A stretch of 64,000 bases of DNA, taken from positions 378,252 through 442,251 of the forward strand of contig OY970216.1 in the NCBI GenBank assembly GCA_963713955.1. The letters are read 5' to 3'. The notes beneath the pieces were generated by a model, which made no database searches, was not told the origin of the DNA, and worked only from the letters and a program-made list of their open reading frames with translations. The DNA is from an uncultured bacterium (GTDB lineage: Bacteria > Patescibacteriota > Minisyncoccia > UBA6257 > GWB1-50-10). Position numbers and translations under genes: made by a program. Position 1 is the stretch's first letter; every line of letters begins with the position of its first letter. This document shows, piece by piece, positions 15,249 to 43,027 of the stretch.

Positions 15249-16430
15249 ATGTCTCGCTTTTCCTTCACCCTCATCGAGCTCCTGGTCGTGATCGCGATCT
15301 TAGCCGTCCTTGCAACCGCCGTCGTCTTGGTCTTGAATCCCGCCCAGCTCTTAGCTCAAGGAAGAGATTCAACCAGGCTCTCTGATCTTTCAGCCCTGAA
15401 TAGTGCCTTATCCCTCTTCCAAGCAGATCAATATACCCAGTCCTTAGGGACTCCGAATACCCTCTACGTATCAGTCCCCGATACCACATCCACCTGTGCC
15501 AATCTGGGACTGTCTTCTCCTCCTATAGGATGGGCCTATCACTGTGTTCCTGCCTCTTCTTCCACCAAGGTAGACGGAACAGGCTGGATTCCCGTGAATC
15601 TCACCCTTATTTCATCAGGATCCCCTTTATCCAAGCTCCCCATAGATCCGACTAACACTTCGTCCTCGAACCTCTACTATGCCTATGTGATGAGCGGAAC
15701 AAATTACCAGTTAACTGCTCACATGGAGTCTCAGAAATATGTCTCCCAGGAAGCTGCTTCCGGAGGAGCCGATCTTGCGATGTACAAGATTGGTTCCAAC
15801 ATTAACATCGCTCCCTTCGTGGGAGGGCTCGTGGGATACTGGTCTTTTGACGAGGGAGGGGGAGCAACCACAACCCTGGATCAATCGGGTTTCGGATCGA
15901 ATGGCTCGTGGTCAGGAACTCAAACGGGGGGGTCCTACTATATAGCGGGTAAGATAGGATTCGCTGGGAATTTCAACGGGAGTGATGACAAGGTTACTGT
16001 TTCGGGAGTTGACCCACTCCTTAACGGATCTCAAGGAACTATTATGGCGTGGGCATATCCTAGCGCCAGTAGTAATGGAAACAACATTTTCGAATCGGTT
16101 GGTCCATCCAGTAACAGATTCTATTTGTCGTATGGTTCTACTTTTCAAGTGTATAGAGGTAACCCCTACACGCAAATAGTGTTAGGTGTTGGGGCACTGA
16201 ACACGTGGTATCATATAGCGCTTTCATGGAACGCGACAACTATGTACGGATATTTCAACGGGAACCTCGTGAACTCGGCAGGTTATACCAATACAAGTAG
16301 TTCGGGAGGGGGCTCCACAATCGGGTCCCAATCACCAGCTTATTTTGCTGGCGAGATTGATGATGTTAGGGTGTACAACCGCGCCCTCTCCGCCGCCGAG
16401 ATAGCCGCGATTTATAATGCACAGAAATAG
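15249..16430 (+). CDS. type IV pilin-like protein fused to LamG/concanavalin-A-like lectin domain (paralog 1)
   Basis: Class-III signal FTLIELLVVIAILAVLA with Glu+5. C-terminal IDDVRVYNRALSAAEI LamG signature. The 5' ~400 bp is near-identical to paralogs at 39290 and 46852. Confidence 0.7.
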   Translation: MSRFSFTLIELLVVIAILAVLATAVVLVLNPAQLLAQGRDSTRLSDLSALNSALSLFQADQYTQSLGTPNTLYVSVPDTTSTCANLGLSSPPIGWAYHCVPASSSTKVDGTGWIPVNLTLISSGSPLSKLPIDPTNTSSSNLYYAYVMSGTNYQLTAHMESQKYVSQEAASGGADLAMYKIGSNINIAPFVGGLVGYWSFDEGGGATTTLDQSGFGSNGSWSGTQTGGSYYIAGKIGFAGNFNGSDDKVTVSGVDPLLNGSQGTIMAWAYPSASSNGNNIFESVGPSSNRFYLSYGSTFQVYRGNPYTQIVLGVGALNTWYHIALSWNATTMYGYFNGNLVNSAGYTNTSSSGGGSTIGSQSPAYFAGEIDDVRVYNRALSAAEIAAIYNAQK

Positions 16431-16993: not shown

Positions 16994-18793
16994 ATGACGT
17001 CGAACGAAATCAGGGAAAAATTCCTCCAGTTCTTCAAGGAACGGGGACATACGGTGGTGCCTTCATCTTCGCTCATCCCCGATGATCCGTCGGTTCTCCT
17101 CACGACCGCCGGCATGCAGCAATTCAAGCCGTACTATTCGGAGCTTGACCCGATAACGACGACGCACCCCTCGATCGAGAGGCCGGTCGGGAAAAGCGCT
17201 GCCTCGATCCAGAAATCGTTCCGGACGTCGGATATCGACGAAGTGGGGGATGAAAGTCATCTCACGTTTTTCGAGATGCTCGGCAACTTCAGCTTCGGCG
17301 GATATTTCAAGGGAGAAGCCATCAAGTACGGCCATGAGTTCATCACTGGCAAGGATTGGATGGATCTCGATATCGACTTCGTGACTGTTTTCGATCCGGA
17401 GAAAGTGCCGGCGGACGACTGGCGGAAGGGTGTTCCGTTCGACAATGAATCATACGAGATTTGGAAGAAAATCGGTTTGCCGGAAGAGAAGATACGGCGT
17501 GACGGCGTGGACGTTTTTTGGGGGCCGACCGGAAACGAGGGCCCCTGCGGTCCGACGACGGAGATCTACGTCAAAAACGCCGCGGACATGCCGGTTGAAA
17601 TATGGAACATCGTCTTCAACGAATTTTACCGAGATAAGAACATGCGCCTTACCCCCTTGAAGACGCCGGGCGTGGATACGGGTATGGGTTTGGAGCGCCT
17701 CGCGATGGTTTCGCAGAAAGTTTCGAGCATTTTCGAAACGGATCTTTTCATTCCGCTCATCCAGGTTTTGGAACTGAACGACCGGGGGAACAAACTGAAC
17801 CAGAAGACGAAAAGGATCATGGCCGATCACGCGCGGGGCATCTCGTTCTTGATCGCCGACGGCGTCCGCCCCTCCAATAAAGAAGCCGGCTACGTTTTGC
17901 GACGCCTCTGCCGACGCTTCATCGTCAACGAGTATTTGAACGAGGGAGCGGAGCCGTATTTCGAAAGGTTGCTCCATGTCGTCATCGAGAACTACGGCCG
18001 GTTTTACGGCGAGCTCGATTACGATCTTGTCGATACGGTGTTCAACGAGGAAAAAACGAGGTTCATGAAGACGATAGAGAACGGCCTCCGGGAACTCGGG
18101 TCGATCGAGAAACTCGATGCGGCGTCGGCCTTCAAGCTATTTGAAAGCTTCGGGTTGCCGTATGAAGTCATCAAGGAACTGGGAGGAGAAAAAGCAAAAG
18201 CGCTCACGCGGGAGGGCTTTGAGGGAGAATTCGAGAAACACCGGGAAATATCACGCGCCGGCGTCGAGAAAAAATTCGGCGGCCACGGGCTCTTGCTCGA
18301 CACCGGCGAGCTCAAGGCCGGGAACGAAGAAGAACTCGCGAGGGTGATTCGGCTCCACACGGCGACGCACCTCATGCACCAGGCGCTCCGGGAAGTTCTG
18401 GGGAACAGTGTCCACCAGATGGGGTCGGACATAACGCCGGAACGGACGCGATTTGATTTTTCTTTCGAGAGGAAACTCAAGCCGGAAGAGATACGGAGGA
18501 TCGAGGAAAAGGTTAATGCGATTATCAAAGCCGATTATGACGTGAAATTCCAAGAAATGCCGAGGAGCGAGGCTGAAAAAACCGGCGCGCTCCATTTCTT
18601 CAAGGCGAAATATCCCGAACGGGTGAAGGTTTATTACGTAACGCCGAGGGGGAAAGGAATTCCTGAGGCGTGGAGCAAGGAATTCTGCGGCGGACCGCAT
18701 GTAACCCACACGGGAGAAATAGGCAAGTTGAGAGTGGTTAAAGAAGAAAGCGTGGCGGCGGGCGTGCGGAGAATAAGGGCCGTGGTCGATTGA
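16994..18793 (+). CDS. alaS: alanyl-tRNA synthetase (short form lacking C-Ala domain)
   Basis: N-terminal EIREKFLQFFKERGH...LLTTAGMQQFKPYY, HTATHLMHQALR and CGGPHV editing motifs. 599 aa. Confidence 0.8.
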   Translation: MTSNEIREKFLQFFKERGHTVVPSSSLIPDDPSVLLTTAGMQQFKPYYSELDPITTTHPSIERPVGKSAASIQKSFRTSDIDEVGDESHLTFFEMLGNFSFGGYFKGEAIKYGHEFITGKDWMDLDIDFVTVFDPEKVPADDWRKGVPFDNESYEIWKKIGLPEEKIRRDGVDVFWGPTGNEGPCGPTTEIYVKNAADMPVEIWNIVFNEFYRDKNMRLTPLKTPGVDTGMGLERLAMVSQKVSSIFETDLFIPLIQVLELNDRGNKLNQKTKRIMADHARGISFLIADGVRPSNKEAGYVLRRLCRRFIVNEYLNEGAEPYFERLLHVVIENYGRFYGELDYDLVDTVFNEEKTRFMKTIENGLRELGSIEKLDAASAFKLFESFGLPYEVIKELGGEKAKALTREGFEGEFEKHREISRAGVEKKFGGHGLLLDTGELKAGNEEELARVIRLHTATHLMHQALREVLGNSVHQMGSDITPERTRFDFSFERKLKPEEIRRIEEKVNAIIKADYDVKFQEMPRSEAEKTGALHFFKAKYPERVKVYYVTPRGKGIPEAWSKEFCGGPHVTHTGEIGKLRVVKEESVAAGVRRIRAVVD

Positions 18794-19920
18794 AACGAAT
18801 GAATCTCTCGGGATTTTTTAAAAAAATAAGAGGCGGCACCGAGAGATATTTGGTAGTCGAAGAGAAAGACAATTTCTTCGAAAAAACGATTGCCAGCGTC
18901 TGCCTGAGAGATAAGGAAATAAGGATTCTGAGACAGTCGGAAATTGCGAAGCTGAGGGAACTGAAGAAAAACGTCTTGCGGGGATTCGACAAGATCGTTT
19001 TCGCCCTTGATTCCGCCTCGGCGACGACCGTTCAGGATTCGGTGAGGGTAAAAACAGCTTCCCGTCTCAAACCGATCACCGAAACGGAACTCGAGGATAT
19101 TGTTTTCAAGGCCTTATGGGAATTTCTCAATAAGCAAAGAGTCTGGGTTTCCAAAAAACTCAACGTATCTGATGCCGCGCTCGTCTTGAACGACGTGCAG
19201 GTAAGGGGCGTTCGCCTCGATTCCCATAATCTCTTCAATCCGATAGGTTTCAAAGGAGACGAGCTGGAATTCATTTTCAAGGGAACGTTCGTGACGAAAC
19301 AGCTTTATCATGAAATACGCGAAGCGGCAAAGACGGTTCCCCTGTCGATCCTCGAGAAGGGGAGCGTCTTGCTCTCATTCCTCAACGGAGAAAAAGCCAC
19401 TCTGGCTTACGTCGGCGAGGAAAGAACGGAAATCTTTTTCAAGGAAGGTTCCCGGGAAGCGTTTGCCGAGGAGATAAACTGGGGGAGCGTGAAATTCAAG
19501 GAAAGAGTATCGGAGGAATTCGGATTGAATTACCAGGCGTCCGCGACGTTGGTGGAGGCCTATGCCCGGGGATCAGTCTCCCGCACCGTCGAAAGGCACT
19601 TCCGGAAGATAATCGCCGGGTGCTTCGGGGATTTTTTTGGAACAGCTCACCTCGGTGGAAAGCACGTCGTGTTTTATTTCGAATCACTCGCCTTGCCTCG
19701 GAACGTTTTTGGAAAAGAAGTGAAAGGCGACTTTTGCAGACTTGACGAAGAATTGGCAAGAAAGGATTTAAGAATAACGAGAGGCGGGAAGGGGGATTTT
19801 GATCTTTCTCGGCATCAGGATACCGCGGCACTTCTGGTTTATTCTTATGCGGATCAAAGGTACGATTTTCTGAACTCAATGCTCCGGCGGCGCGCCGGGT
19901 GGCTTGTTTCCAATTTTTAG
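18790..19920 (+). CDS. hypothetical protein, possibly actin-fold (FtsA/PilM-like)
   Basis: 376 aa. A weak LDSASATTV phosphate-1-like segment. No firm motif. Confidence 0.3.
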   Translation: MKRMNLSGFFKKIRGGTERYLVVEEKDNFFEKTIASVCLRDKEIRILRQSEIAKLRELKKNVLRGFDKIVFALDSASATTVQDSVRVKTASRLKPITETELEDIVFKALWEFLNKQRVWVSKKLNVSDAALVLNDVQVRGVRLDSHNLFNPIGFKGDELEFIFKGTFVTKQLYHEIREAAKTVPLSILEKGSVLLSFLNGEKATLAYVGEERTEIFFKEGSREAFAEEINWGSVKFKERVSEEFGLNYQASATLVEAYARGSVSRTVERHFRKIIAGCFGDFFGTAHLGGKHVVFYFESLALPRNVFGKEVKGDFCRLDEELARKDLRITRGGKGDFDLSRHQDTAALLVYSYADQRYDFLNSMLRRRAGWLVSNF

Positions 19921-19921
19921 T

Positions 19922-20050
19922 CCCTCACCCTTGGAAGATAAGCAATTGCTTAAAAGTGGATGGTGAGTGATAATTAACGATAATGGGAAAGTTATTAATC
20001 AGCGGTCGTGAAAAAATGGATTGCTCTCGAGCAATCTTTCAAGGGTGAGG
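19922..20050 (+). promoter_or_regulatory. long inverted-repeat intergenic element (family B) copy 1
   Basis: CCCTCACCCTT...AAGGGTGAGGG arms. The 3' arm abuts the ATG at 20052. TTGCTT -35-like box inside. Confidence 0.6.
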
Positions 20051-20051
20051 G

Positions 20052-21734
20052 ATGAAGACTGAAAAGAAGATTTTTCTTGAAAAAGACCAGGATGTCGACT
20101 CGGCGATAGATGAAATCGTCGAGACCTCGGCTACCAGGATAATATTGAATATACCCAAGAATTCCGTTTTGGGAATTTCGATCCATAACTTTCAGATATT
20201 GAAAAGGGAAGCCGAGACCGCGGGCAAGGAGATGGTTGTCGAGTCGGTGGACGAACATGTTCTCGAACTGGCCTCTCTCGCCAAAATAGCCGCCCTGAAT
20301 CCGGTTTTCAGGATCAAAGAAAGAGCGGTTGCCGACATCTTGCCGAAAGAGATGGATATCGGAGGGAGGAGAACGGAAGAAGAATCGGTTGGCGGAGAAA
20401 TAAGCGCCGAGAAGCCGCGGAGAGGCAAAAAAGAAAACGCCAAGAAAGACGCGAAGCGCGAAATTGAGGAGAGAGAGATAGACATATTTGAAGAGGAAAT
20501 CGAAAAATCCCCTCGCGAGCCGGAATACACTCCGTTGTTTGAAGCCAAGGAAAATCCGGAGGAGCCGGAAAAGCCGAGAAAAGAGAGGGGAAAGAGAAGA
20601 AAGAAACTGGTTTTTGCAGGAGTTCTTATCCTCATCTTCGCCGCTGCTTTCTTTGTTCTCACATATCTTCTGCCCCATGTCACCATACGACTCACCATAA
20701 AGAAAACCGCGTCGCCCTTTTCTTCCAGCGTTCTCGTAAGCACGGCGGTGGCGTCGTCTTCGTTTTCAACGAGCACGATTATTCTTCCCGGACAAATCAT
20801 TTCCGCTGCAGGCAACGTCAGTCTCCACTTCGCGAGCGGAACCGAAGAGCATGTGGAAACGAAAGCAAGCGGGATGCTCACGGTGTACAATTCGTATAGT
20901 TCGGCTCCGCAGGTTTTGGTCGCAACGACGCGCTTTGTTTCTCCCGGAGGGAAATTGTTCAGGTCTACGGAACGGATAACCGTTCCCGGAGCCAAAGCCG
21001 CGAGCGGAACCACGACGCCCGGTTCGGCCGGAGTGAACGTGGTTGCCGCCGAGGCCGGCGCGGATTACAACGTCGGACCTTCAACCGGCTGGACGATTCC
21101 GGGGTTCGAGGGAACCCCGCGCTACGATAAATTCTCCGCCGCGGCACTCGCGCCCATGACTGGCGGCTTCGTCGGCACGACGACCGTCCCCACGAAGAAC
21201 GACCTCGTAAGCGCTGAGGGAGAAATCGATCAGCAACTTGAAGGCGTTCTCCAGAGTAAAATTTCTCTTTTGGGTTCGGATAACTTAAAAATATTGCCAC
21301 AATCCCTTTCCTTTGCAACCACGAGCGAGCAAATGACGGATAGCAAGGACGGGCAAGGTTTCGACATTCTCGCCGAAGGCACTATCAAAGAGATCGGTTT
21401 CGACGAAAATATGATGAAGCAAGCGGTCCTGGATTCAGTGACTTCCGGCGGAAGCTCGGGTCTTCAGATAAGCGATTTCACCGTTTCCTATGGAACCTCG
21501 ACCCCCGATTTCTCAAGTGGCAAGATGTATTTCAGCGCTTCGGGGACGATTGCTTACGGACCGAACATCGATTTTGGAAAGGTTAAATCGGAAATACTTG
21601 GCAAGGGGGCCGATCAGCTGAAAGCGATCATCTTCGCGCTGCCGGGCCTCGAAGAAGCGAATGTTTCTTTCTGGCCCTTCTGGGTCAATACCGTGCCCAC
21701 CAATCCATCCAACGTCAACATCGAGGTGCAGTAA
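20052..21734 (+). CDS. hypothetical bitopic membrane protein with charged linker and large extracytoplasmic domain
   Basis: 560 aa. KRE-rich region, a single TM (LVFAGVLILIFAAAFFVL), then a Ser/Thr/Gly-rich domain. Confidence 0.45.
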   Translation: MKTEKKIFLEKDQDVDSAIDEIVETSATRIILNIPKNSVLGISIHNFQILKREAETAGKEMVVESVDEHVLELASLAKIAALNPVFRIKERAVADILPKEMDIGGRRTEEESVGGEISAEKPRRGKKENAKKDAKREIEEREIDIFEEEIEKSPREPEYTPLFEAKENPEEPEKPRKERGKRRKKLVFAGVLILIFAAAFFVLTYLLPHVTIRLTIKKTASPFSSSVLVSTAVASSSFSTSTIILPGQIISAAGNVSLHFASGTEEHVETKASGMLTVYNSYSSAPQVLVATTRFVSPGGKLFRSTERITVPGAKAASGTTTPGSAGVNVVAAEAGADYNVGPSTGWTIPGFEGTPRYDKFSAAALAPMTGGFVGTTTVPTKNDLVSAEGEIDQQLEGVLQSKISLLGSDNLKILPQSLSFATTSEQMTDSKDGQGFDILAEGTIKEIGFDENMMKQAVLDSVTSGGSSGLQISDFTVSYGTSTPDFSSGKMYFSASGTIAYGPNIDFGKVKSEILGKGADQLKAIIFALPGLEEANVSFWPFWVNTVPTNPSNVNIEVQ

Positions 21735-22068: not shown

Positions 22069-22185
22069 ATGAAGGTAAGATCTTCGGTCAAAAAAATATG
22101 CATGAACTGCAAAGCCGTTAAACGCAACGGCAAGCTTTACGTCATATGTTCCAAAAATCCGAAACATAAGCAAAGACAGGGATGA
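22069..22185 (+). CDS. rpmJ: 50S ribosomal protein L36
   Basis: [38 protein letters not shown], 38 aa and not in the ORF track. The stop overlaps the rpsM ATG. Confidence 0.85.
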
Positions 22186-22565
22186 GAGTAGCCGGAGTCA
22201 ACATACCCGATGATAAAAAGGTCCAGTTTGCGCTGGCCTACATTTATGGCGTTGGCCCTTCTCTCGCCGGCAAGATCGTGGCTGAAACGAAAGTGAACCC
22301 GGCGAAGCGGGCGAAAGACTTGACGCCGGAAGAAGTCAACAAAATCCAATCAATCATAGAGAAGCGTTACAAAGTCGAGGGGGAGTTAAGGCAAGCCATA
22401 CGACAGAATATTTCGCGCTTGAAGGACATCAAGTGCTACCGGGGAATGCGGCATTTGAGAAAGTTGCCCGTGAGGGGTCAGAGAACGAAAACTAATTCGA
22501 GAACGGTACGAGGCAACGTAAGGCATACGGCCGGAAGCGGCAAGAGGAAAGTGGAACTGAAATAA
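22182..22565 (+). CDS. rpsM: 30S ribosomal protein S13
   Basis: MRVAGVNIP...ALAYIYGVG start and a basic C-terminus. Confidence 0.9.
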
Positions 22566-22566
22566 T

Positions 22567-22698
22567 CCCTCACCCTTCAAAGATTGCTTCGCTTAAAAAA
22601 CATTTGATACAATATGAAATTCATGATTGATACAAATATACGGAGAAATAATGCAAACTTCAGAGTCGTGAAGTTTATTAATCTTTAAAGGGTGAGGG
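22567..22698 (+). promoter_or_regulatory. long inverted-repeat intergenic element (family B) copy 2, between rpsM and rpsK, enclosing promoter TTGCTT-N18-TACAAT (22584-22613)
   Basis: 19-bp arms CCCTCACCCTTCAAAGATT / AATCTTTAAAGGGTGAGGG. The 3' arm abuts the rpsK ATG. Confidence 0.65.
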
Positions 22699-23151
22699 AT
22701 GGGGAAGAAAAAAGTAATACAAAAATCCAAAGAAGAGACGACGGGAGAGAGCAAGGGAGCGGGGAAACCGGTTTCCCGGGAATCTTCTTCGCCGGTGAGA
22801 CAAAAACTCAGCGAGGGAAAGATTTACATCCAGTCCACCTATAACAATACAATGATATCCGTTACCGACCGCGCGGGGAACGTCGTTACCTGGATGTCAG
22901 CCGGATCGCTTGGTTTTTCCGGACCGAAGAAAGCGACGCCGTTCGCCGCTTCCAAGGTGGCGGAAGCGATAGCGCAGAAGATAGAAAAGTCAGGACCCTC
23001 GACGGTGGAAATATACGTCCGCGGCGTGGGTTCCGGAAGAGATTCGGCGATCCGATCATTTGCCGCCAAGGGTTTCAACATAACGGCGATAAAGGACGTC
23101 ACGCCGATTCCGCATAACGGCCCCAAGCCGCCGAAAACCAGAAGGGTGTAA
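22699..23151 (+). CDS. rpsK: 30S ribosomal protein S11
   Basis: IYIQSTYNNTMISVTD...PFAA...ITDVTPIPHNG. Confidence 0.9.
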   Translation: MGKKKVIQKSKEETTGESKGAGKPVSRESSSPVRQKLSEGKIYIQSTYNNTMISVTDRAGNVVTWMSAGSLGFSGPKKATPFAASKVAEAIAQKIEKSGPSTVEIYVRGVGSGRDSAIRSFAAKGFNITAIKDVTPIPHNGPKPPKTRRV

Positions 23152-23158
23152 ATAAGGA

Positions 23159-23761
23159 ATGAAAAACGTAAAAGAAAAAAAAGAACGAGCGCTCGGCATC
23201 AAGCTTTTCCTCAAAGCAGAGCGATGCAATTCTCCGAAATGTGCGACGGTAAGAAAGCCGTATGGCCCCGGAATGCACGGTCAGAAAAGAAAAAGGCCTA
23301 TTTCCGATTTCGGCAGGCAGCTTAAGGAAAAACAAAAGATGCAGTTAATCTACGGTTTGAACAACAGGCAAGTGAGAGCGCTTTTCAGGGATTATTCGCC
23401 CGAGAAGATATTTTCCGCCCTTGAAAGGAGACTGGACAGGGTGGTATATTATCTTGGTTTCGCTCCTTCCCTGAGGGTAGGAAGGCAAATCGTTTCCCAC
23501 GGTCACATCCTCGTGAACGGCAAAAAAGTGACGATCCCCTCGTTTCGGGTGAAAACAGGAGACAAGATTACGGTGAGACCGGAATCGAGGAAGAGCAAGC
23601 TGTTTGAGGAATTGTCGGAAAAATTGAAACAAAAAGAACTTCCCGCGTGGCTTACCTTGAAAGGGGAGGAATTCACCGGTGAGTGCGTGGCAATGCCGGA
23701 TTTCAAAGGGATTCAACTGCCCTTCGATATAAGCCTGGTCGGCGAGTTTTATTCCCGGTGA
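23159..23761 (+). CDS. rpsD: 30S ribosomal protein S4
   Basis: LQLIYGLNNRQVRALF and an S4 domain, with an N-terminal Cys-containing segment. Confidence 0.9.
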   Translation: MKNVKEKKERALGIKLFLKAERCNSPKCATVRKPYGPGMHGQKRKRPISDFGRQLKEKQKMQLIYGLNNRQVRALFRDYSPEKIFSALERRLDRVVYYLGFAPSLRVGRQIVSHGHILVNGKKVTIPSFRVKTGDKITVRPESRKSKLFEELSEKLKQKELPAWLTLKGEEFTGECVAMPDFKGIQLPFDISLVGEFYSR

Positions 23762-23762
23762 G

Positions 23763-23892
23763 TACAACTGCGATAAGATTAAATCAGTGTTTAAAGTTAA
23801 TTAAAAGTTGAAACATATGATATTAAGTAAAGGTCATCAAGGGGAATAAATGTGGTTTTGATTTAATCAAATACTGCAATCGCAGTTGTACT
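23763..23892 (+). promoter_or_regulatory. long imperfect hairpin in rpsD-rpoA intergenic region
   Basis: GTACAACTGCGAT..GATTAAATCA paired with TGATTTAATC..ATCGCAGTTGTAC, giving ~23 bp of stem around a ~75-nt loop. Confidence 0.5.
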
Positions 23893-25900: not shown

Positions 25901-26066
25901 TCTTACGCTATTGTTGGGATAGAAGGGGTCGGGGAGGAACGGGAAATGAGTTCCTCCCCGTGTAGGAAGCTATGAGAAACCGAGGGTTTCTCAGGAGCGA
26001 GTTGCTGCATAGCGACTCGCGACGCAGCATTGGCGGAAGTCGTTTTCTCCACTGCTGGGATCTGCT

Positions 26067-26255
26067 AAAAACTATTCAGCCTCCTCGCTAAAACCCTCGG
26101 TTATCAAAATCCTCCTCGCTCTTCGTCGGAATTATCCGCAAAATATCGAACTCGACCTAAAGGGACTCAAACAGCGATATTTTGCTCATTCCTTCCTCAT
26201 TGCTCGGGGATTTTGAAACAATCTCGAACAAACCGCTCAAAAGCTGAATAGTTTT
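26067..26255 (+). repeat. palindromic intergenic repeat, copy R1
   Basis: Bounded by AAAACTATTCAGC/GCTGAATAGTTTT inverted repeats. The inner stem is GCAAAATATCG...CGATATTTTGC. It shares CTCCTCGCT...TCGTCGGAAT and GCTCATTCCTTCCTCA..GCTCGGGGATTTTGA blocks with 6 other copies. Confidence 0.8.
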
Positions 26256-26270
26256 CATCGGAGTGCTTTT

Positions 26271-27664: not shown

Positions 27665-28520
27665 TGCAGGGTATCCCTAGTCAATTGGCGCAAAGGTTAA
27701 CGACTTTTTGAGGTAGTTCCTGGGGTTTTGAAACAATTCCGGTGAGGAAAATCTGACGGAAAATTCCCTCACGTAGTCAGGCATCTTCTCCGCGGTCACG
27801 TGATGGTACATTCTCCTCACGAATGTCCTGAAGTTCCCGAACATCCCCTCGATCTCGGAGGTCTTCCCGAACTCCCATTTAGCATGGATGTCCCGTTCGT
27901 GTCTCACTGGCCACCATCTCTCGATGCCCCGGTATATGGCTGCCCCATCGGTATGGAGCCTCGCCCTCGGCTTCACGTACTCCATGAGGAACCGAACCGC
28001 TTCTGCTCGGTCAACCGACTTCTCGGGCAAAACCACGTACGCGACCTTTCTCGAGCGCTCCTCTTTCCCCATGATGAGTGACCAGCCCTTGCCGTATGCC
28101 TCATCGAGCTGCACGATCCGTGAGAGAATATCATGGTTTTGAGGCAGGTGTTCCCGGAAGCGGTCGTACCAGCGACGGATGGCCATCTCGGAAAGCCCCG
28201 AGAGGTTCATGGCTTGAACAACGGGTATCTTTTCGCACCACGCCCAGAGGATGAGCCACCACGTCTCAAGCGGGAGCTTCAGATCGCTTAACCAGGTGTA
28301 TGAGAGGAGGGTGAACCTTCTCCGACATCGGGGGCACCAGTACCGATCCTTCTCCTTCCAGACATCCCGGTACCGACAGCGGGGACAGTACACATTCTTG
28401 CCAAAGAGCGTTCTCCGGAGAAACTTCCTGATCTGGGCTTCCGACGGTATTTGATTCAATTGGTACATATCCTTCATGGTATGCGATATGCGCCAACATG
28501 ATTAGAGTACCCGTGCACTA
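27663..28520 (-). mobile_element. IS1595-family insertion sequence (~860 bp) inserted into a copy of the conserved 45-bp module
   Basis: Imperfect terminal IRs TGTGCAGGGTATCCCTAGTCAAT (left) and ATGATTAGAGTACCCGTGCAC (right, reverse complement). GTGCA is repeated at both junctions. Confidence 0.65.
27677..28477 (-). CDS. IS1595-family (ISXO2-like) DDE transposase
   Basis: N-terminal CPRC...CPRC zinc ribbon and an HTDGAAIY DDE segment. 266 aa. Confidence 0.8.
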   Translation of the reverse strand: MKDMYQLNQIPSEAQIRKFLRRTLFGKNVYCPRCRYRDVWKEKDRYWCPRCRRRFTLLSYTWLSDLKLPLETWWLILWAWCEKIPVVQAMNLSGLSEMAIRRWYDRFREHLPQNHDILSRIVQLDEAYGKGWSLIMGKEERSRKVAYVVLPEKSVDRAEAVRFLMEYVKPRARLHTDGAAIYRGIERWWPVRHERDIHAKWEFGKTSEIEGMFGNFRTFVRRMYHHVTAEKMPDYVREFSVRFSSPELFQNPRNYLKKSLTFAPID

Positions 28521-29583: not shown

Positions 29584-29847
29584 ATGGCTAACAAAAAAGG
29601 ATATCGGGTAGCGAAAGAGGTAAAAGCGGAGATTGTCCGCCGCGTGAAGGAAGAAGGCGTCTCCGTCGCAGAAGCGGCAAAAGATGCAGGCGTCCACGAG
29701 ACAACCGTGTATGGATGGCTCGGCGCCGGTGCCACGAGCGCTCCCTCCTGGGGAGAAATCAATCGCCTAAAGAAACAGAATCAGGAACTCTTCGAAGTGA
29801 TCGGTGAACTCACGATCAAGCTGTCCCAGACCCAAAAAAAGAATTGA
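29584..29847 (+). CDS. IS3 transposase OrfA (HTH)
   Basis: 87-aa HTH/leucine-zipper OrfA ending at AAAAAAAG. Confidence 0.8.
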   Translation: MANKKGYRVAKEVKAEIVRRVKEEGVSVAEAAKDAGVHETTVYGWLGAGATSAPSWGEINRLKKQNQELFEVIGELTIKLSQTQKKN

Positions 29848-30626
29848 GCAGGGAAAGGAACGTATCCGCCCTGGCTCGCGCCATGGGTGTCTCGCGCTCA
29901 TCGCTCTATTACGTCGCAACGCAGGACAAGAAGGATTGGGCATTAAAGGTCCGGACGGAGGAGGTGCTTCACGAGCATCCCTCATACGGCTCACGCCGAC
30001 TGGCGATTGCGCTCGGCATCGGCAGACCGAGAGCGCAACGGGTCATGCGGATTTACGGCATCAAGCCCTACCGCAGGCATGGGAGAAAATACAGGAAATC
30101 CAAGGCGGAACGGCACTTCCCGAACCTCCTCCTCGGCATTATGCCATCATATGCGAACCATGTCTGGGCGACGGATTTCACGGAGCTTGTCTTTCACGGG
30201 AAGAAGCTGTACGTATCAACGATCCTTAACCTGTTTACGAGGCAACTGATGGGCGTTCATGTGGCGACCCGGAAGGGATCGACGCTCACCATCCAAACTC
30301 TGGCGAACGCGCTCTTCCATTGCCCGCGACCCGTGATCTTCCATTCTGACAACGGGAGGGAATACGAAGCGAAGGCGTTCATCGCTATGCTTGAGCGCTA
30401 CGGCATCACCATCTCCCGCTCACGCCCCGGATCGCCGTGGGAGAACGGATACCAAGAATCTTTCTACGGAAAATTCAAAATGGATCTTGGCGATCCTAAT
30501 CGGTTCAGATCCTTAGGGGAACTTGTGGCGGAGATCTACCGAACGCTTTGGGAGTACAACCATACAAGAATCCACTCCGCTCTCAGGATGCCGCCTTCGG
30601 TGTTTGCAGAGAAGATAGCAGTGTGA
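29844..30626 (+). CDS. IS3 transposase OrfB (DDE integrase core), -1 frame
   Basis: HSDNGREYEAK, WENGYQESFYGKFK and NHTRIHSAL integrase-core motifs. Frame -1 relative to orfA. Confidence 0.8.
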   Translation: MSRERNVSALARAMGVSRSSLYYVATQDKKDWALKVRTEEVLHEHPSYGSRRLAIALGIGRPRAQRVMRIYGIKPYRRHGRKYRKSKAERHFPNLLLGIMPSYANHVWATDFTELVFHGKKLYVSTILNLFTRQLMGVHVATRKGSTLTIQTLANALFHCPRPVIFHSDNGREYEAKAFIAMLERYGITISRSRPGSPWENGYQESFYGKFKMDLGDPNRFRSLGELVAEIYRTLWEYNHTRIHSALRMPPSVFAEKIAV

Positions 30627-30969
30627 GAGAATGAAAAAACGACGAGAAAACTTGTCGAGTGACTGTCTAAAGAAACCTATCCATCACACCGGCCCAATCA
30701 GTACGAAATAAGAAGTATTTCAAGTCCGACAAGATGGGTCACCGCCACTTGTGGTCAAAGACCCAATGGGTTGAGTTTCTAAAAAACTACTATAAGATCA
30801 AAGAAGCAAGAGTGGTTAGAGCGATTCGAAAAGATGACCTGGTTATAGCTCTTACTAAAAAGTAGATATTATTTTAACTAATCGGAATTTGTCCCTTCCG
30901 TCATTTTCTCCCACTGGCCTGACCCCCATATATTAGACACAAAGGTCGAAGTCAATATACCCTTGTGTC

Positions 30970-31227
30970 ATGAAGAAAACATATCGCACTGCTCCCGAGG
31001 TGAAGGAGCAGATATTGAAGAGAATCAAGGAGGAAGGGATCCCGGTCGTCCAGGCCGCCAAGGAACACGGTCTGAATCCCGCCACCATATACAACTGGCT
31101 GGGAAGGGGCGTGAAAGGCACCCCCACGATCGGTGAACTCGTCCGCCTCAAGCGCCAGAACGAAGAGCTCCTCGCCCTCGTGGGCGAGCTCACCCTGGCC
31201 TCCTCACGCACTCAAAAAAAGCGTTGA
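30970..31227 (+). CDS. IS3 transposase OrfA
   Basis: 85 aa, identical to the 61072-61329 product. Confidence 0.8.
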   Translation: MKKTYRTAPEVKEQILKRIKEEGIPVVQAAKEHGLNPATIYNWLGRGVKGTPTIGELVRLKRQNEELLALVGELTLASSRTQKKR

Positions 31228-32033
31228 TCAAAAAGCAGAAGAAGACGAAGTGGGAACTTGCCCGTGAACTCGGCCTCTCCCGCGCCTCCCTCTACTATGT
31301 CTCGAAACAATCGCCCAAGGATTGGTCGCTCAAGGAAAGGATCATATCAGTCTTGAGAGACCATCCTTCATACGGCTTCAGAAGAGTGGCTTTGGAGCTC
31401 AAGATCAACAAAAAAAGAGCCCAACGGGTGATGAGGCTCTTCGGGATGAAGGCATATCGGAGAAGGGGCAGAAGGCCAAGGAAAACGGGCTTCTCGAGTA
31501 TCCTGTATCCCAATCTCCTTCAGAAGAACTTCCCCAAAGGATTGAACGATATCTGGGTGGCGGACTTCACGTACATCCCGTACCAAGGGAAGTTCCTGTA
31601 TCTCGCCACCGTGATGGATTTGTTTGCGAGGGAGATCGTGGGCTGGGCCGTGATGAATACCCACTCGGTGCCTCTGGTCCTCCAGGCACTCTTCTCCGCG
31701 GCGGAACATCATCCGAGACCCAACATCTTCCACTCGGACAACGGAAGGGAGTATGGCTCAAGGATCTTCACCGGAGCTCTTTTGAACCTCGGCGTCAGGA
31801 TATCGAGATCGAGGAAGTCATCGCCATGGGAGAACGGCTACCAGGAGTCCTTCTACTCCCAGTTCAAGGTGGATCTGGGCGATCCGGAGAGGTTCAAATC
31901 GCTGGGAGAGCTGGTCTACGAGATCCATCGCCTGGTCTGGGACTACAACCACCGGAGAATCCACTCCGCCCTCAGGATGCCGCCTGCACTGTTCTCGAAT
32001 CGCTACCAGAAACTTGTCGAAAAAGTGTCTTAA
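31224..32033 (+). CDS. IS3 transposase OrfB (-1 frame)
   Basis: HSDNGREYGSR...WENGYQESFYSQFK...NHRRIHSAL. Identical to the 61326-62135 product. Confidence 0.8.
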   Translation: MIKKQKKTKWELARELGLSRASLYYVSKQSPKDWSLKERIISVLRDHPSYGFRRVALELKINKKRAQRVMRLFGMKAYRRRGRRPRKTGFSSILYPNLLQKNFPKGLNDIWVADFTYIPYQGKFLYLATVMDLFAREIVGWAVMNTHSVPLVLQALFSAAEHHPRPNIFHSDNGREYGSRIFTGALLNLGVRISRSRKSSPWENGYQESFYSQFKVDLGDPERFKSLGELVYEIHRLVWDYNHRRIHSALRMPPALFSNRYQKLVEKVS

Positions 32034-32078
32034 CTTTGGGGGTCTTTACAATCAGATAGAAAAAGAATCCTTAATGCG

Positions 32079-33652: not shown

Positions 33653-33718
33653 GCAGTTTTCTTTCATCTTTACACGAACAAGAATCACTTGTCTTTTGAG
33701 CGAGTTGTTCGAGGCTGT

Positions 33719-33857
33719 TAAAAAATCCCCGAGCGATGAGGAAGGAATGAGCACAATAGCGAATGTTTGAATCCCGCTGGTTTCATTAATGAAACCAAGG
33801 TTGAGTTCGCTATTGTGCGACTTTATTTCGATGAAGAGCGAGGAGGATTTTAGCAAC
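33719..33857 (-). repeat. palindromic intergenic repeat, copy R2 (inverted relative to R1)
   Basis: Reverse complement of the GCTCATTCCTTCCTCATCGCTCGGGGATTTT block. Inner stem GCACAATAGCG...CGCTATTGTGC with a GGTTTCATTAATGAAACC insert shared with copy R6. Confidence 0.8.
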
Positions 33858-33900
33858 CGAGAATTGCAGCGAAGAAGATAAGTGGTTCTTGTTCTTGCTC

Positions 33901-35220
33901 TTATTTCAAGGTGACCTCGAAGAGGGAACCGCTTTTCAGGAAATAGAGTTGATCCCCCGACAAGGAGACCGCCGAGACGCCGCTGTCTATTTTGTACTGG
34001 TTTTGGGGCATCCGCTCGTCGAGTTCGCTCAGGACGAGGTTTCCGCCCTCCAGGATCACGCCGTAGTTTGGAGCGTAGGGGATCCAGATGAAATCGGAAA
34101 CCGGATAGTCGGTTTTCACGCTCCAGAAAGTTCCTTTTTGCACTTGATAATCGGATCGGTAATCGTTCACGGCGAGCATCGACAAACTTCCGTTGTCGGC
34201 GACGAGCGCTAATCTGTCGTCGTCGGGAGAAACGTAGATTTCACGAACCGTCGGCAAGAGAGTTTCCAAAGAAGTCGTCGTCTGGTTTGATCGGTCGTAT
34301 TCGTAGAGCTTGTGCGCGATGTCCGTGAGGAAGAGCGTGCTGCCGAGAGAAGTGGTCTTGATATCGGACATATCTTTTATCCCAGTTGCAAGGGTTATTT
34401 GAGTTCTCAAAAAAAGATTCGCCGAAAATATGTTACCGTTCTCCTCCGCGACGAATATTTCGTTGCCTTTGGCGTAGGAGTATTGGTTGTCGGGCAAGGA
34501 ATACAATTTTTGGCTTGCTCCGCTCGAGATGTTGATGGCGTATACCGCTTTGTTGCCGATGGCTATGACGCTGTTTTGGTCGAAGGGATGATAAGACCAG
34601 TATTTTATCGAAGCCCCCGCGGGTAGCTCGACGTCCGCGTATCGGGGCGCGTTCGCGAGATCCATGACGTAATAGTCTTTCGCGTCGCCGGTGACGATGA
34701 TGCTCCGCCGTTCGCTGCTCAAAACCACTGAACTCCCTTTTACTTTCTGATCTCCCAGAAGGAGGGTGCCGGTGGCGTCTTTGATGACGAGGCCGTTGCC
34801 GGTGAGCCAGAAGGCGGAAGCATTGTACTCTGATATTTTTTTCGCGCTCCAATTTACGGGCCAGAGAATAATTTGCGAGGCCGCGGTCACGACGCCCGGC
34901 TCAATTTGCAAGTTTTTCTCCCACGGCGAGTAACCGGGGTACGTTACCGTGACGTCGTACGAGCCGGGGAGCAGGTTGTCGAAGAAAGCCCCGCTCGAAA
35001 AGAAGTTCCCGATGACGTTCGAGTAGTCCCGGACCACCCCGTCTATTTCGATCTGCGATCCCGAGGGGGTGAAGTCTAGGTACATGCCGCCGGTCCTCGC
35101 GAACTGGAACGTCTTGTAGTTGAACGAAAGCCCTTGGGCGGAAATCACAAGATAAGCGCCTCCGAAGAGAAAAACGAAAATGAAGAGATAAAAGAAGAAT
35201 TTCCTGGCTTTTAAATTCAC
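33901..35220 (-). CDS. hypothetical membrane-anchored protein with beta-rich (propeller/PEGA-like) ectodomain
   Basis: 439 aa with an N-terminal TM. Repeated Y..D/N..G segments. No catalytic motif. Confidence 0.45.
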   Translation of the reverse strand: MNLKARKFFFYLFIFVFLFGGAYLVISAQGLSFNYKTFQFARTGGMYLDFTPSGSQIEIDGVVRDYSNVIGNFFSSGAFFDNLLPGSYDVTVTYPGYSPWEKNLQIEPGVVTAASQIILWPVNWSAKKISEYNASAFWLTGNGLVIKDATGTLLLGDQKVKGSSVVLSSERRSIIVTGDAKDYYVMDLANAPRYADVELPAGASIKYWSYHPFDQNSVIAIGNKAVYAINISSGASQKLYSLPDNQYSYAKGNEIFVAEENGNIFSANLFLRTQITLATGIKDMSDIKTTSLGSTLFLTDIAHKLYEYDRSNQTTTSLETLLPTVREIYVSPDDDRLALVADNGSLSMLAVNDYRSDYQVQKGTFWSVKTDYPVSDFIWIPYAPNYGVILEGGNLVLSELDERMPQNQYKIDSGVSAVSLSGDQLYFLKSGSLFEVTLK

Positions 35221-35221
35221 C

Positions 35222-35356
35222 CCTCACCCTTCGAGGATTGTTTTGTTGCAACCCCCGATTGTTAAAAGCGCCCTTTTTTTGGAGGCTGTTTTCATGTTTT
35301 TTGATTATGTATCATAATACGCCGGATGGCAATTGCTTATCCTCGAAGGGTGAGGG
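35222..35356 (+). promoter_or_regulatory. long inverted-repeat intergenic element (family B) copy 3, divergent region upstream of murA
   Basis: 18-bp perfect arms CCCTCACCCTTCGAGGAT / ATCCTCGAAGGGTGAGGG. Confidence 0.65.
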
Positions 35357-35382: not shown

Positions 35383-36693
35383 ATGTCGGAATCAGACGGA
35401 AAATTCGTGGTTGAGGGCGGCAGACCCCTCAAGGGCACGGTAAGGCTCGCCGGTGCCAAAAATGCCGCGACCAAGATGCTGGTGGCTTCGCTCTTGACCG
35501 ACGAGGAATGCGTTTTAGAAAACTTCCCGGAGATCGGCGATACGGGGGTTGTCCTGGAACTTTGCCGGATTTTGGGAAGTGATATCTCAGCCGAAGGTTC
35601 CGTGGTCAAAATAAAAACTCCGGAGATAACACGCACCAAAGTCGAAACACTAAGCCGGAGGAACAGGATCCCCATCCTTGCCTTGGGCCCGCTTTTGACA
35701 CGGAAGGGGGTCGGGGAGGTGCCGATGGTCGGCGGGGATAAGATAGGTCCGCGCCCGGTTGATATGCACGTGGAAGCTTTAAAATCTCTCGGCGCCGAGA
35801 TAGAAGCTACCGAGAAATCTTATCAAGCGAAAGCTCCCCACGGCCTCAAAGGCACCGAAATAACGTTCCGATATCCTTCCGTCGGCGCGACCGAGCAGGT
35901 TTTGATGGCAGCGGTTCTCGCAAGAGGGAAGACGATTATGCGGAACGCCGCCGTCGAACCGGAACTAATCGATTTGATAAAAGTTCTCCAGAAGATGGGT
36001 GCCATCATCGAGCTTGGCACGAACCGGGTGATTTCCATTTACGGCGTTGAAAGGCTCCGCGGGTTCAAACATAAAATACTTGGCGACCGGAACGAAGCCG
36101 TCTCGTTCGCTTGTCTCGCCGTCGCGACGGGAGGGAGAATTTTCGTGGAGGGCGCGGAACAGGAACATCTCATTACGTTCTTGAACAACTTGAGGAGGGT
36201 CGGCGGCGAATACGAAGTCGCCGAAAACGGGATATGGTTCTGGCGGGAGCGGAAACTTACGGGGCTGAAGGTCGAGACTGATACCCATCCCGGATTCATG
36301 ACCGACTGGCAGCAACCGTTCACCGTTCTTCTCACGCAAAGCGACGGAGCTTCCGTGGTTCACGAGACGGTCTACGAAGACCGATTCGGATACACCAAGG
36401 ACTTGAATTTAATGGGGGCAAATATTAGAGTAGTGAATGAATGTTTGGGTGATCTGCCGTGCCGCTTTAAGGATTCCCTCTCACCCCACAGCGCCGTGAT
36501 CTCGGGACCGACCAAGCTTCACGGCGCCGAGCTCACCGTGCCCGACCTCCGTGCCGGCATAGCTCACTTGATCGGAGCCTTAGTCGCCGAAGGAAAGTCG
36601 ACCATCAAAGGCATTTCGGAGATAGACCGGGGATACGAGAAGATAGATGAGAGATTGAGAAATCTCGGCGCGGACATAAAGAGAATTCAATAA
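35383..36693 (+). CDS. murA: UDP-N-acetylglucosamine 1-carboxyvinyltransferase
   Basis: KNAATKMLVASLLTDEECVLENFPEIGD and the EPT two-domain length (436 aa). Confidence 0.9.
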   Translation: MSESDGKFVVEGGRPLKGTVRLAGAKNAATKMLVASLLTDEECVLENFPEIGDTGVVLELCRILGSDISAEGSVVKIKTPEITRTKVETLSRRNRIPILALGPLLTRKGVGEVPMVGGDKIGPRPVDMHVEALKSLGAEIEATEKSYQAKAPHGLKGTEITFRYPSVGATEQVLMAAVLARGKTIMRNAAVEPELIDLIKVLQKMGAIIELGTNRVISIYGVERLRGFKHKILGDRNEAVSFACLAVATGGRIFVEGAEQEHLITFLNNLRRVGGEYEVAENGIWFWRERKLTGLKVETDTHPGFMTDWQQPFTVLLTQSDGASVVHETVYEDRFGYTKDLNLMGANIRVVNECLGDLPCRFKDSLSPHSAVISGPTKLHGAELTVPDLRAGIAHLIGALVAEGKSTIKGISEIDRGYEKIDERLRNLGADIKRIQ

Positions 36694-39048: not shown

Positions 39049-39087
39049 GGGGGAAATCTTTTGCTTTCTCGTTGAAAGCGCTCCGAT

Positions 39088-39235
39088 CTCTAAAATCCTC
39101 CTCGCTTCTCGTCGGAATCAAGCCGCAAAATATCGAACTCAACCTCGTCCGCCAGCTGGCGGAGGCGGATTCGGGATTCAAACATGCGATATTTTGCTCA
39201 TTCCTTCCTCAGGGCTCGGGGATTTTGACGAGATC
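39088..39235 (+). repeat. palindromic intergenic repeat, copy R3
   Basis: AAAATCCTCCTCGCTTCTCGTCGGAAT head. GCAAAATATCG...CGATATTTTGC stem. GCTCATTCCTTCCTCAGGGCTCGGGGATTTTGA tail. Confidence 0.8.
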
Positions 39236-39271
39236 TTCGCGAAACTAACTCAAAAGCAAAAGATTTTCCTG

Positions 39272-39280
39272 TGTTATAAT
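39272..39280 (+). promoter_or_regulatory. extended -10 (TGTTATAAT) upstream of pilin paralog 2
   Basis: TGnTATAAT consensus 10 bp before the ATG at 39290. Confidence 0.4.
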
Positions 39281-39289
39281 AAGAAAACA

Positions 39290-40513
39290 ATGACCTCTCG
39301 CCAATCTTTCACCCTGATTGAGCTCCTCGTAGTCATCGCGATCTTGGCGATCCTCGCGACCGCCGTCGTCCTCGTCTTGAATCCTGCCCAGCTTCTTGCC
39401 CAGGGAAGAGATTCCACGAGACTCTCTGATCTTTCCGCTCTGAACAGCGCCCTCTCCTTATTTCAGGCTGATGCCTATACCCAATCCTTAGGGACTCCTA
39501 ACACAGTCTATATATCAATCCCTGATTCATCATCCACCTGTGGGGACCTGGACCTGCCTGCCTTAGGAGGAGGCTGGGCCTATCACTGTGTTCCAAGCTC
39601 TTCCTCAACAAGAGTAGACGGAACAGGCTGGATTCCCGTGAATCTCACCCTTATTTCATCAGGATCCCCTTTATCCAAGCTCCCCATAGACCCCGTGAAT
39701 ACCACAAGCACTGGACTCTACTATACCTACGTATCAGGAGGCTCCTATGCCTTATCCAGTGCCTTGGAATCACAGAAGTACCTTGTATCCACCGCAGCAA
39801 CAGATAATGGCTATGATCCAGGAAGATACGAAACAGGTTCTGACCTTTCCCTTATTGGAAGAAGTGAAGGATTGGTAGGATGGTGGCCCCTCGATGGAGA
39901 CCCAGGGGACAGGAGCGGGAATGGGAATGGGGGGACGCCGATTAACAATCCCGCGTGGACTACGGGGAAGATAAATCAAGCCATTAGTCTTAACGGATCA
40001 AACAATAACTTGGGGAATTACCTCAATATCCCAAGTGTGAGCAATCTCAATATAACTAACTCAGTTACCCTTGCGGCATGGGTTAACAGAAATACTAGCG
40101 GCGCGGATTTACAGGGGGTAATAACGAAATCTAGTCCTGCAACGAGAGCCTACAGCCTCACAACCCAATATAATACCCCAACGTATCAAGTACAGTTGGC
40201 GATCAACGGCACGTTTTGTCCCTACATTGCTCCCACCAATTATAACCAATGGCATTACGTTGCCGGCGTTTACGACGGGACAAATGAAAACGTTTACTAT
40301 GACGGTGTTTTGGTCCAGACGTGTCCTAAAACCGGTTCGATTAACGTCACGAGCGATCCTCTTTATATTGGACTTTACAATTATGCTATCGGCACTGAAG
40401 GTTCGTCTTGGTATGGATATCGCCCCTTCGGCGGCCTGATCGATGATGCCCGTGTCTATAATCGCGCCCTCTCAGCAGCTGAGATCCAAGCTATCTACAA
40501 CGCACAGAAATAG
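39290..40513 (+). CDS. type IV pilin-like/LamG fusion (paralog 2)
   Basis: MTSRQS|FTLIELLVV signal and a LamG C-terminus (IDDARVYNRALSAAEIQAIYNAQK). The ORF-track start at 39194 runs through repeat R3 and is rejected. Confidence 0.7.
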   Translation: MTSRQSFTLIELLVVIAILAILATAVVLVLNPAQLLAQGRDSTRLSDLSALNSALSLFQADAYTQSLGTPNTVYISIPDSSSTCGDLDLPALGGGWAYHCVPSSSSTRVDGTGWIPVNLTLISSGSPLSKLPIDPVNTTSTGLYYTYVSGGSYALSSALESQKYLVSTAATDNGYDPGRYETGSDLSLIGRSEGLVGWWPLDGDPGDRSGNGNGGTPINNPAWTTGKINQAISLNGSNNNLGNYLNIPSVSNLNITNSVTLAAWVNRNTSGADLQGVITKSSPATRAYSLTTQYNTPTYQVQLAINGTFCPYIAPTNYNQWHYVAGVYDGTNENVYYDGVLVQTCPKTGSINVTSDPLYIGLYNYAIGTEGSSWYGYRPFGGLIDDARVYNRALSAAEIQAIYNAQK

Positions 40514-42773: not shown

Positions 42774-42877
42774 TATTCTCTGGCGAGCATATATATTCCG
42801 TAAGCTTCTTCGAAGCACATATACTCGCGGTGTGGGTATGGAGCAGGCAAAGGATATGAAAGTGCTCTCGAACGATT

Positions 42878-43027
42878 CTGCCGGAAGGCGTTTCAAAATC
42901 CCCGAACGATGAGGAGAGAATAAGCAAAATATCGCTGTTTGAGTCCCTTCAGGTCGAGTTCGATATTTTGCGGATAATTCCGACGAAGCGGTCGGAGGAT
43001 TTTAATGCCTGGAGGTTTAAGTGAGAG
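42878..43027 (-). repeat. palindromic intergenic repeat, copy R4 (reverse orientation)
   Basis: TTCAAAATCCCCGAACGATGAGGAGAGAATAAGCAAAATATCG...CGATATTTTGC...CGACGAAGCGGTCGGAGGATTTT. Confidence 0.8.

Follow-up and report, generated by a model that had tools for sequence, protein, structure and literature searches.

The Correia or NEMIS repeats of Neisseria, a prokaryotic MITE, are 100–200 bp long, end in terminal repeats of ~20–26 bp, carry sigma-70-like promoters and occur in many intergenic copies directly 5' of genes; Correia elements duplicate TA. REP and REPIN elements (RAYT, Y1), with their short hairpins and small loops, are extragenic, lie also inside operons and combine compensatory complementarity with genome-specific variants; to our knowledge, REPs make no 5-bp duplications. 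IS1380-like families (ISfinder) have CC..GG ends and AT-rich duplications of 4–5 bp. Co-transcribed Correia repeats are a substrate of RNase III (PMC10969869), and ERIC, RUP, BOX and the Rickettsia palindromic elements (RPEs) are further small palindromic repeats that are co-transcribed, some of which keep an open frame (PMC10969869, reference 48).

The window analyzed here, a 64,000-nucleotide stretch from an uncultured bacterium of the Patescibacteriota, carries three copies of a palindromic unit that we call family B. Its size, terminal repeats, intergenic copies directly 5' of genes and, in the window copies, promoter-like sites recall Correia/NEMIS, from which it differs in phylum, arm sequence and flanks, in lacking the Neisseria-type 26-bp repeat and in showing 5-bp duplications or none; no fixed polarity, no ORF that stops within the 3' arm and no placement flush with stop and start is described for Correia. 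Compensatory complementarity, genome-specific variants and an extragenic location, also inside operons, are shared with REP/REPIN elements, but the family-B arms lie 95–125 nt apart. RPEs insert in frame within genes, whereas family B is intergenic and stops in its arm close the frame. A tentative lead to MITEs derived from IS1380-like families is given by CCC...GGG ends and AT-rich duplications of 4–5 bp; a matching full-length IS was not found in the loci examined. The length of 118–147 bp, the lack of a transposase gene, the terminal repeats, the dispersed copies and the empty orthologous sites are those of a MITE; it falls short of full membership through its inconsistent duplication and the lack of a known parent IS.

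Family B works like Correia/NEMIS and REPIN-type elements and appears to belong to neither. Its anatomy is new, combining a fixed polarity toward the downstream gene with an internal ORF that ends in the 3' arm by the ATG of that gene. No description of MITE-like elements in Patescibacteria was found in the literature on the motif and on MITEs in CPR bacteria, and family B is apparently an undescribed small mobile palindromic element of these ultra-small Patescibacteria/CPR. A Sib/Ibs paper reportedly contains the 11-mer that ends the arms, which we take as coincidence.

Results

Three inverted-repeat elements in the window

The three elements, el1, el2 and el3, are 130–136 bp long (Table 1). 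The 11-mer CCCTCACCCTT and its complement occupy six exact sites that form three convergent pairs (19922/20041, 22567/22688 and 35221/35346); together with a seventh, one-mismatch site this gives 7 matches compared with 1.02 expected, a number reached in 0 of 100 shuffles. The arms of el1, el2 and el3 measure 19, 21 and 18 nt with 95–100% complementarity and exact CCCTCACCCTT/AAGGGTGAGGG ends, while the interiors align poorly and little in them is conserved. The three perfect-armed inverted repeats in three gaps that a sequence-only reading of this DNA had reported are therefore real, given the exact pairs and the excess of matches, and the poor alignment bears out its description of the interiors as weakly similar.

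A single T stands between the upstream stop codon and the 5' arm of el1 and el2, and their 3' arm leads straight into the ATG. The same reading had placed the 3' arm flush with the ATGs at 20052 and 22699, where it indeed lies, and had missed a third flush start: the minus-strand sequence at the el3 arm is AAGGGTGAGGG-GTG, in which GTG 35220 opens a 439-codon ORF, so that a start codon adjoins all three copies, not two. The polarity of el3 is toward this minus-strand gene. Pfam identifies the genes on either side of el2 as S13 and S11. A search for further copies, which the reading had proposed, was productive in other Patescibacteria genomes, where there are many, and fruitless within the window, where covariance model R1 returned no copy beyond el1, el2 and el3.

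Table 1. Positions of family-B elements and their parts in the window, and of family-C copies in other genomes
Feature	Position	Strand	Description
el1	19921-20052 (core 19922-20051)	+	fills the gap between the stop of ORF 18790-19920 and ATG 20052
el1 arms	19921-19939 and 20034-20052		inverted repeat; whole element R1 74.2 bits on +, 52.5 on -
el1 promoter-like site	19946-19974	+	TTGCTT (19946-51)-N17-GATAAT (19969-74), 8 nt 5' of internal ORF
el1 internal ORF	19983-20048	+	21 codons, MGKLLISGREKMDCSRAIFQG; TGA in 3' arm, 3 nt before ATG 20052 and in the same frame
el1 local hairpin P2	20019-20036	+	GATTGCTC-TC-GAGCAATC, directly 5' of 3' arm
el2	22565-22700 (core 22567-22698)	+	between rpsM (22182-22565) and rpsK (22699-23151)
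el2 arms	22565-22585 and 22680-22700		inverted repeat; whole element R1 86.9 bits on +, 77.3 on -
el2 promoter-like site	22584-22613	+	TTGCTT-N18-TACAAT; TG one base 5' of the -10 hexamer
el2 internal ORF	22614-22688	+	24 codons, MKFMIDTNIRRNNANFRVVKFINL; second in-frame ATG 22623; TAA 22686-22688 in 3' arm, 10 nt before ATG 22699
el2 local hairpin P2	22655-22676	+	AAACTTCA-GAGTCG-TGAAGTTT; recurrent GTCG(T/C)G motif in loop
el3	35221-35356	-	between divergent genes 33901-35220 (-) and 35383-36693 (+, EPSP_synthase family)
el3 arms	35221-35238 and 35339-35356		inverted repeat; whole element R1 81.8 bits on -, 55.9 on +
el3 promoter-like site	35304-35332	-	TTGCCA-N17-CATAAT, 10/12 matches, 8 nt 5' of internal ORF
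el3 internal ORF	35224-35295	-	23 codons, MKTASKKRALLTIGGCNKTILEG; TGA in arm, 3 nt before GTG 35220 and in the same frame
Family C copies	L026 6984-7109; L037 2440-2543; L046 1139-1245 and 4024-4144; L054 2136-2240; L096; L128-L130; L144/L145		

Two other repeats were observed in the window. A second intergenic family bracketed by inverted repeats, with interior blocks in common, is found at 26061–26262, 33673–33897, 39051–39269, 42846–43048, 46527–46723 and 48268–48481, several copies lying upstream of paralogous pilin-like genes (N_methyl and Laminin_G_3; 15249–16430, 39194–40513 and 46852–48183). A 43-nt repeat, CTAAAATCGTTCGAACATCGTCCACTCCTG..., has eight copies at the ends of small genes (26751, 27635, 29095, 32420, 32979, 33624, 59271 and 59765), in the neighbourhood of genes for a nucleotidyltransferase and for an IS1595-type transposase (27677–28477).

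Copies in other genomes

One genome per species was scanned with an end-to-end pattern with exact 11-mer arms, which yielded more than 117 loci; since exact arms were required and only the matches listed were counted, arm conservation and copy counts are biased. Among the matches listed, the loci split into two unrelated classes, one GC-rich in Alphaproteobacteria and one AT-rich in Patescibacteria. The Patescibacteria class measures 118–147 bp, with interiors of 13–44% GC, and comprises at least 60 copies outside the window; its hosts among the matches listed, labelled by the taxonomy as deposited in the case of MAGs, are Jorgensen-, Harrison-, Lipton-, Brenner- and Berkelbacteria, Paceibacterota, Minisyncoccia and several MAGs labelled Saccharibacteria.

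An arm stands directly before the ATG or GTG of a long ORF in 37 of the copies listed, the window's three included, and in 20 of these 37 the other arm is preceded by the stop codon of a long ORF plus one nucleotide. The genes downstream of copies, identified outside the window by N-terminal sequence and BLAST to window proteins, are rplB, rpsS, rplR, rplF, rpsD, rpsK, rplI, rpsO and ssb, and further atpG, atpH, atpB, nusB, mraZ, mraY, hpf, topA, ligA and glyS. Near-identical copies occur within single genomes: an atp operon of L102, for example, holds three and a ribosomal operon of L027 two. Copies within a genome are not independent. Between genomes, el2 aligns without gaps and at 86% identity to the copy that a Paceibacterota MAG (L116) has at rpsH–rplF, the similarity beginning with TAAT and ending with ATG. 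The rpsM–rpsK junction is also occupied in two distant genomes (L032 and L061), as is the junction of the 560-aa gene in L088; this recurrence of the same junctions could reflect function or site preference rather than random insertion.

With R1, a third arm type was found (L032, 1596), as was a sister family, C, with arms ATCCCGTTAGA...TCTAACGGGAT (Table 1), one copy of which occupies the rpsM–rpsK junction of L144. Family-C copies are mostly flanked by perfect 5-bp duplications, ATGAA or ATGAG, which preserve the upstream TGA and the downstream ATG. Nested or adjoining palindromes were seen as well: in L027 (1969–2137) a mini-hairpin is nested within a family-B copy, and in L054 a family-C copy directly follows a family-B copy.

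Junctions in related genomes

A metagenome scan with the S11 of the window gave 80 related alpha-operon loci. The rpsM–rpsK gap is 2–7 nt in six relatives whose S11 is at least 71% identical (e.g., gaaataaTTatggg), in agreement with the earlier remark that these two genes are normally near-contiguous, and neither CCCTCACCC nor GGGTGAGGG occurs in 648 kb from the 80 relatives. The el1 junction measures 10–30 nt in four of six relatives compared, the closest included, and holds unrelated inserts of 129 and 146 nt in the other two. The alpha operon of a Liptonbacteria genome (L046) has family B at rpsK–rpsD, family C at rpmJ–rpsM and only 24 nt at rpsM–rpsK. Family B at rpsM–rpsK is not a conserved regulator; it is inserted relative to close relatives. 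The gapless 86% match bounded by TAAT and ATG, the empty junctions and the scattered sites are the marks of a mobile unit.

Across 77 relatives (L118–L197) the rpsM–rpsK gaps are bimodal, with 47 of up to 35 nt, 30 of 60–215 nt and none between, and diverse palindromes lie inside the expanded gaps. One relative, L122, has a family of its own, AGTAATCRCGAA...GATTACTCT, which fills both of the junctions where the window carries family B. In the window itself, the 196-nt rpsD–rpoA spacer likewise opens with a perfect 14-nt inverted repeat (23761–23774 and 23879–23892), the first bases of which belong to the stop codon of rpsD; it differs from family B in sequence and is without a long internal ORF.

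Terminal repeat, stem and target duplications

In a unit of ~120–147 bp, an AT-rich interior is enclosed by a terminal inverted repeat of ~20 bp, (A)T-CCCTCACCCTT-N5-AT ... AT-N5-AAGGGTGAGGG-A(T). In 34 aligned Patescibacteria copies from the window and other genomes, among the matches listed, the 20-bp stem is 98.4% paired, with 53 compensatory cells at the five positions free of the search pattern and 56 over the full stem; none of 500 shuffles attains these values, and slid registers also fall far below them. Among the 21 non-Watson–Crick stem cells, 10 are sense-strand G-U and 9 are A-C. As G-U is not in excess over A-C, complementarity is kept symmetrically, as for a DNA palindrome or hairpin needed in propagation, and these 21 cells give no sign of selection specifically on the sense RNA. 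A second hairpin, P2, lies just 5' of the 3' arm, often with GTCG(T/C)G in the loop, or overlaps the arm extension. A fold check, as the sequence-only reading had suggested, showed the long-range stem to dominate each predicted RNA fold (z = −6.2 to −7.1 on the plus strand), and with 45–50 nt of coding flank per side the centroid structure retains it.

When the element is taken as (T/C)CCC...GGG, perfect 5-bp direct repeats flank 17 of 78 copies and 4-bp repeats flank two. The 5-bp repeats are ATGAA (ten copies), ATGAG (three), GTAAA, ATTAA, GTCAA and ATAAA; neighbouring registers give none, and a flank-swap control gave 4.7 ± 1.6 against 14 observed. By family, a perfect 5-bp repeat is present in 10 of 14 family-C and 8 of 63 family-B copies. 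The window's three copies and 42 others have only AT..AT at their flanks. Four AC/GT variants suggest that AT..AT is an outer inverted repeat, and since it can equally be part of the inverted repeat, the transposition signature comes from a minority of family B and from family C. The notion that flush copies of the form stop-T-CCC...GGG-ATG are decayed 5-bp duplications does not fit.

Among the loci examined, no arm pair 0.2–4 kb apart encloses a transposase in the manner of a full-length IS with matching ends, and no autonomous partner with matching ends was found. The IS3 and IS1595 transposases of the window were considered as partners and rejected, as their ends are unrelated (IS3-family ends, TGGCCTGACCCCCA). 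Pfam scans of the window proteins gave the transposase domains rve and DDE_Tnp_IS1595 and no RAYT, within the 25 of 65 families listed and a window that is 8% of the contig. Separately, an IS3-family element of 1136 bp with an rve transposase and TG...CA ends is present in identical copies at 30915–32050 and 61017–62152, and 29844–30626 holds a diverged third transposase gene.

Polarity and internal open reading frame

In each of the 37 start-flush copies among the matches listed, R1 gives the better score to the strand on which the adjoining gene lies. An internal ORF of 21–33 codons, running from an ATG to a stop inside the 3' arm, is present in 22 of the 37 start-flush copies listed, compared with ~2–8 expected; the stop is either the TGA of GGGTGAGGG, in frame and 3 nt 5' of the gene's ATG, or a TAA or TGA 10 nt 5' of it. 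ATG-initiated ORFs of at least 20 codons that end in the 3' arm number 21 on the forward and 2 on the reverse strand, where shuffling of the interiors yields 2.3 ± 1.5. Of 36 cases with an ATG, 22 keep the frame open as far as the arm, compared with 4.9 in mononucleotide and 7.9 ± 2.3 in dinucleotide shuffles. The ORF is commoner in start-flush copies than in the remainder of the copies listed (22/37 vs 3/17, Fisher p = 0.007), and in family C a forward ORF is found in 9 of 13 copies. It is no general trait of expanded rpsM–rpsK spacers, which have it in 3 of 27 cases with 2.5 expected. A frame open across the whole element and read as part of the neighbouring protein was rejected because of the in-frame TGA of the arm under the standard code.

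Promoter-like sites and gene starts

In the window, a TAnnWT box ends 4–9 nt 5' of the start in 17 of 57 genes, compared with 4.2% of all ATGs, host −35 boxes are TTGCnn at 17-nt spacing, and Shine-Dalgarno sequences are few in this genome; from these motifs, host gene starts apparently have a leaderless-type architecture. Examples of TTGCnn-N17-TAnAAT ending 6–8 nt 5' of an ATG are seen at 977, 4618, 16994, 40678, 46852, 55102, 56119 and 59867.

The promoter-like layout of the window elements is that of host gene starts, namely −10-N8-ATG in el1, −10-N9-ATG in el2, counted to its second in-frame ATG, and −10-N8-ATG on the minus strand in el3, so that it stands 8–9 nt 5' of the internal ORF in all three copies. 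A −35/−10-like pair, already attributed to each element, can be written as TTGC(T/C)(T/A)-N17/18-(G/T/C)A(T/C)AAT, and the pair that had been singled out in el2, TTGCTT-N18-TACAAT at 22584–22613, is there as described. Both hexamers are conserved between el2 and the L116 copy, and the spacer between them has diverged. A simple promoter scan of the window elements called the site of el3 and did not call those of el1 and el2; el3 has a second, weaker promoter-like site on the plus strand (35289–35318). Taken together, the motifs make promoter activity in the window copies plausible. Family-wide, a strict −10 box precedes the internal ORF in 4 of 29 copies among the matches listed, and some copies, whose ORF begins 25 nt inside the element, have no room for a promoter. 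Consequently, the leaderless internal ORF was dropped as a rule for the family and kept for the window copies only.

In a read-through transcript, the modelled folds make it plausible that the long-range stem would bury the start region, whereas in a transcript starting inside el2 the rpsK start is predicted to be left unpaired. A role of the 3' arm as a Shine-Dalgarno site, with the 5' arm as an anti-Shine-Dalgarno mimic, was discarded, given the few such sites in the genome and the symmetry of the arms as DNA.

Discussion

Family B is repeated, keeps its stem by covariation, is inserted relative to close relatives, is spread over junctions and genomes with a fixed polarity and a conserved ORF, and has 5-bp target duplications in part of its copies. 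We consider it likely that family B is a mobile DNA palindrome of Patescibacteria, MITE/REPIN-like and non-autonomous, which would be moved by a transposition enzyme. In genomes as compact as these, the only room left for such an element is the short gap from a stop codon to the next start codon, and hence it looks tailored to both.

An unlikely alternative is a host cis-regulatory RNA: its stem would be a translational operator, an RNase III site or an insulator, and its internal promoter would give rpsK-rpsD-rpoA-rplQ a control of their own. The stem is strongly favoured in the folds, start codon included, and the promoter-like site is conserved between el2 and L116; however, the stem mismatches are split between G-U and A-C, the interiors turn over fast and some copies are flanked by 5-bp target duplications. 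While the downstream genes are mostly growth-related, they are unrelated to one another, and the closest relatives and 648 kb of related operon DNA hold no copy. Likewise, rpsM–rpsK is occupied in L032 and L061 and its spacer is expanded in 30 of 77 relatives, yet in other relatives the same junction is filled by unrelated palindromes. A ribosomal-protein autoregulatory leader fits no better, with the element absent in the closest relatives and present before more than 20 different genes, and in Rfam 15 the window has no match at gathering score, a permissive scan of el2 giving chance-level hits only (E ≥ 0.87). The dedicated separate control of rpsK-rpsD-rpoA-rplQ that the sequence-only reading had implied is not supported: family B precedes at least 20 unrelated housekeeping genes elsewhere, is absent from the nearest relatives and has stem mismatches without a sense-strand G-U bias. 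If these genes are separately controlled, that would at most be a by-product of the insertion of a mobile element.

It is highly improbable that family B and the GC-rich nested palindromes found in Sphingomonas, Labrys and Mesorhizobium form one family exchanged between phyla. The same end-to-end pattern is present at more than 60 loci in Alphaproteobacteria, but the 11-mer alone is in common and the match comes partly from the search pattern; the alphaproteobacterial interiors are nested REP-like hairpins of 60–78% GC, their flanks are GC/GG, and they have no start-codon adjacency. The search of viral contigs gave a single match, again of the GC-rich alphaproteobacterial type (IMG/VR contig L198, 11896–12027). 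The identical 11-mer ends in Alphaproteobacteria are probably convergence. Such GC-rich nested palindromes with identical 11-mer ends were seen in Sphingomonas, Labrys, Mesorhizobium and Parvibaculum (L001, L002, L008, L016, L017 and others).

We give equally little credence to the idea that the internal ORFs are real small-protein genes, such as toxins or leader peptides, with the palindrome as a regulatory shell. The open frame is conserved far above chance, but what is conserved is its length and end point: the peptides are unrelated save for the C-terminal residues dictated by the arm, and the differences between the el2 and L116 ORFs are mostly non-synonymous. Chance inverted repeats or ordinary intrinsic terminators, to which T-rich tracts after P2 hairpins and the terminator-like P2 of el1 on the minus strand might have pointed, can be dismissed on the seven matches against 1.0 expected, the dozens of homologous copies, the stem covariation and the lack of a U-run after the long stem.

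If family B is a mobile element, its anatomy suggests how it could be accommodated. In a read-through mRNA, the 20-bp stem would hide the gene start; ribosomes translating the internal ORF would open the arm stem and terminate 3–10 nt from the gene start or overlapping it, and termination beside the start codon could lead to re-initiation on the downstream gene. In the window copies, an internal promoter would yield a near-leaderless ORF with the same effect. Insertions in essential, coupling-dependent operons may thereby be tolerated, the ORF or promoter acting as an adaptor. As a tentative extension, which we regard as possible and no stronger, families B and C could be "translation-relay cassettes", that is, mobile palindromes fitted to leaderless starts, stop–start coupling and rare Shine-Dalgarno sequences, in which a promoter and a leaderless or re-initiated mini-ORF with its stop in the arm deliver ribosomes to any adjoining start.

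Patescibacteria have very small, tightly packed genomes that are assumed to be poor in selfish DNA, and family B bears on how mobile DNA persists in streamlined genomes. For annotation, there is a risk that family-B spacers are taken for regulatory RNAs and that their ORFs are entered as genes. The family offers a handle on translation start in a lineage with few Shine-Dalgarno sites, and new promoters and points of translational coupling may arise from it within essential operons. If the relay reading is true, the element colonises the most conserved operons and rewires their transcription without silencing them.
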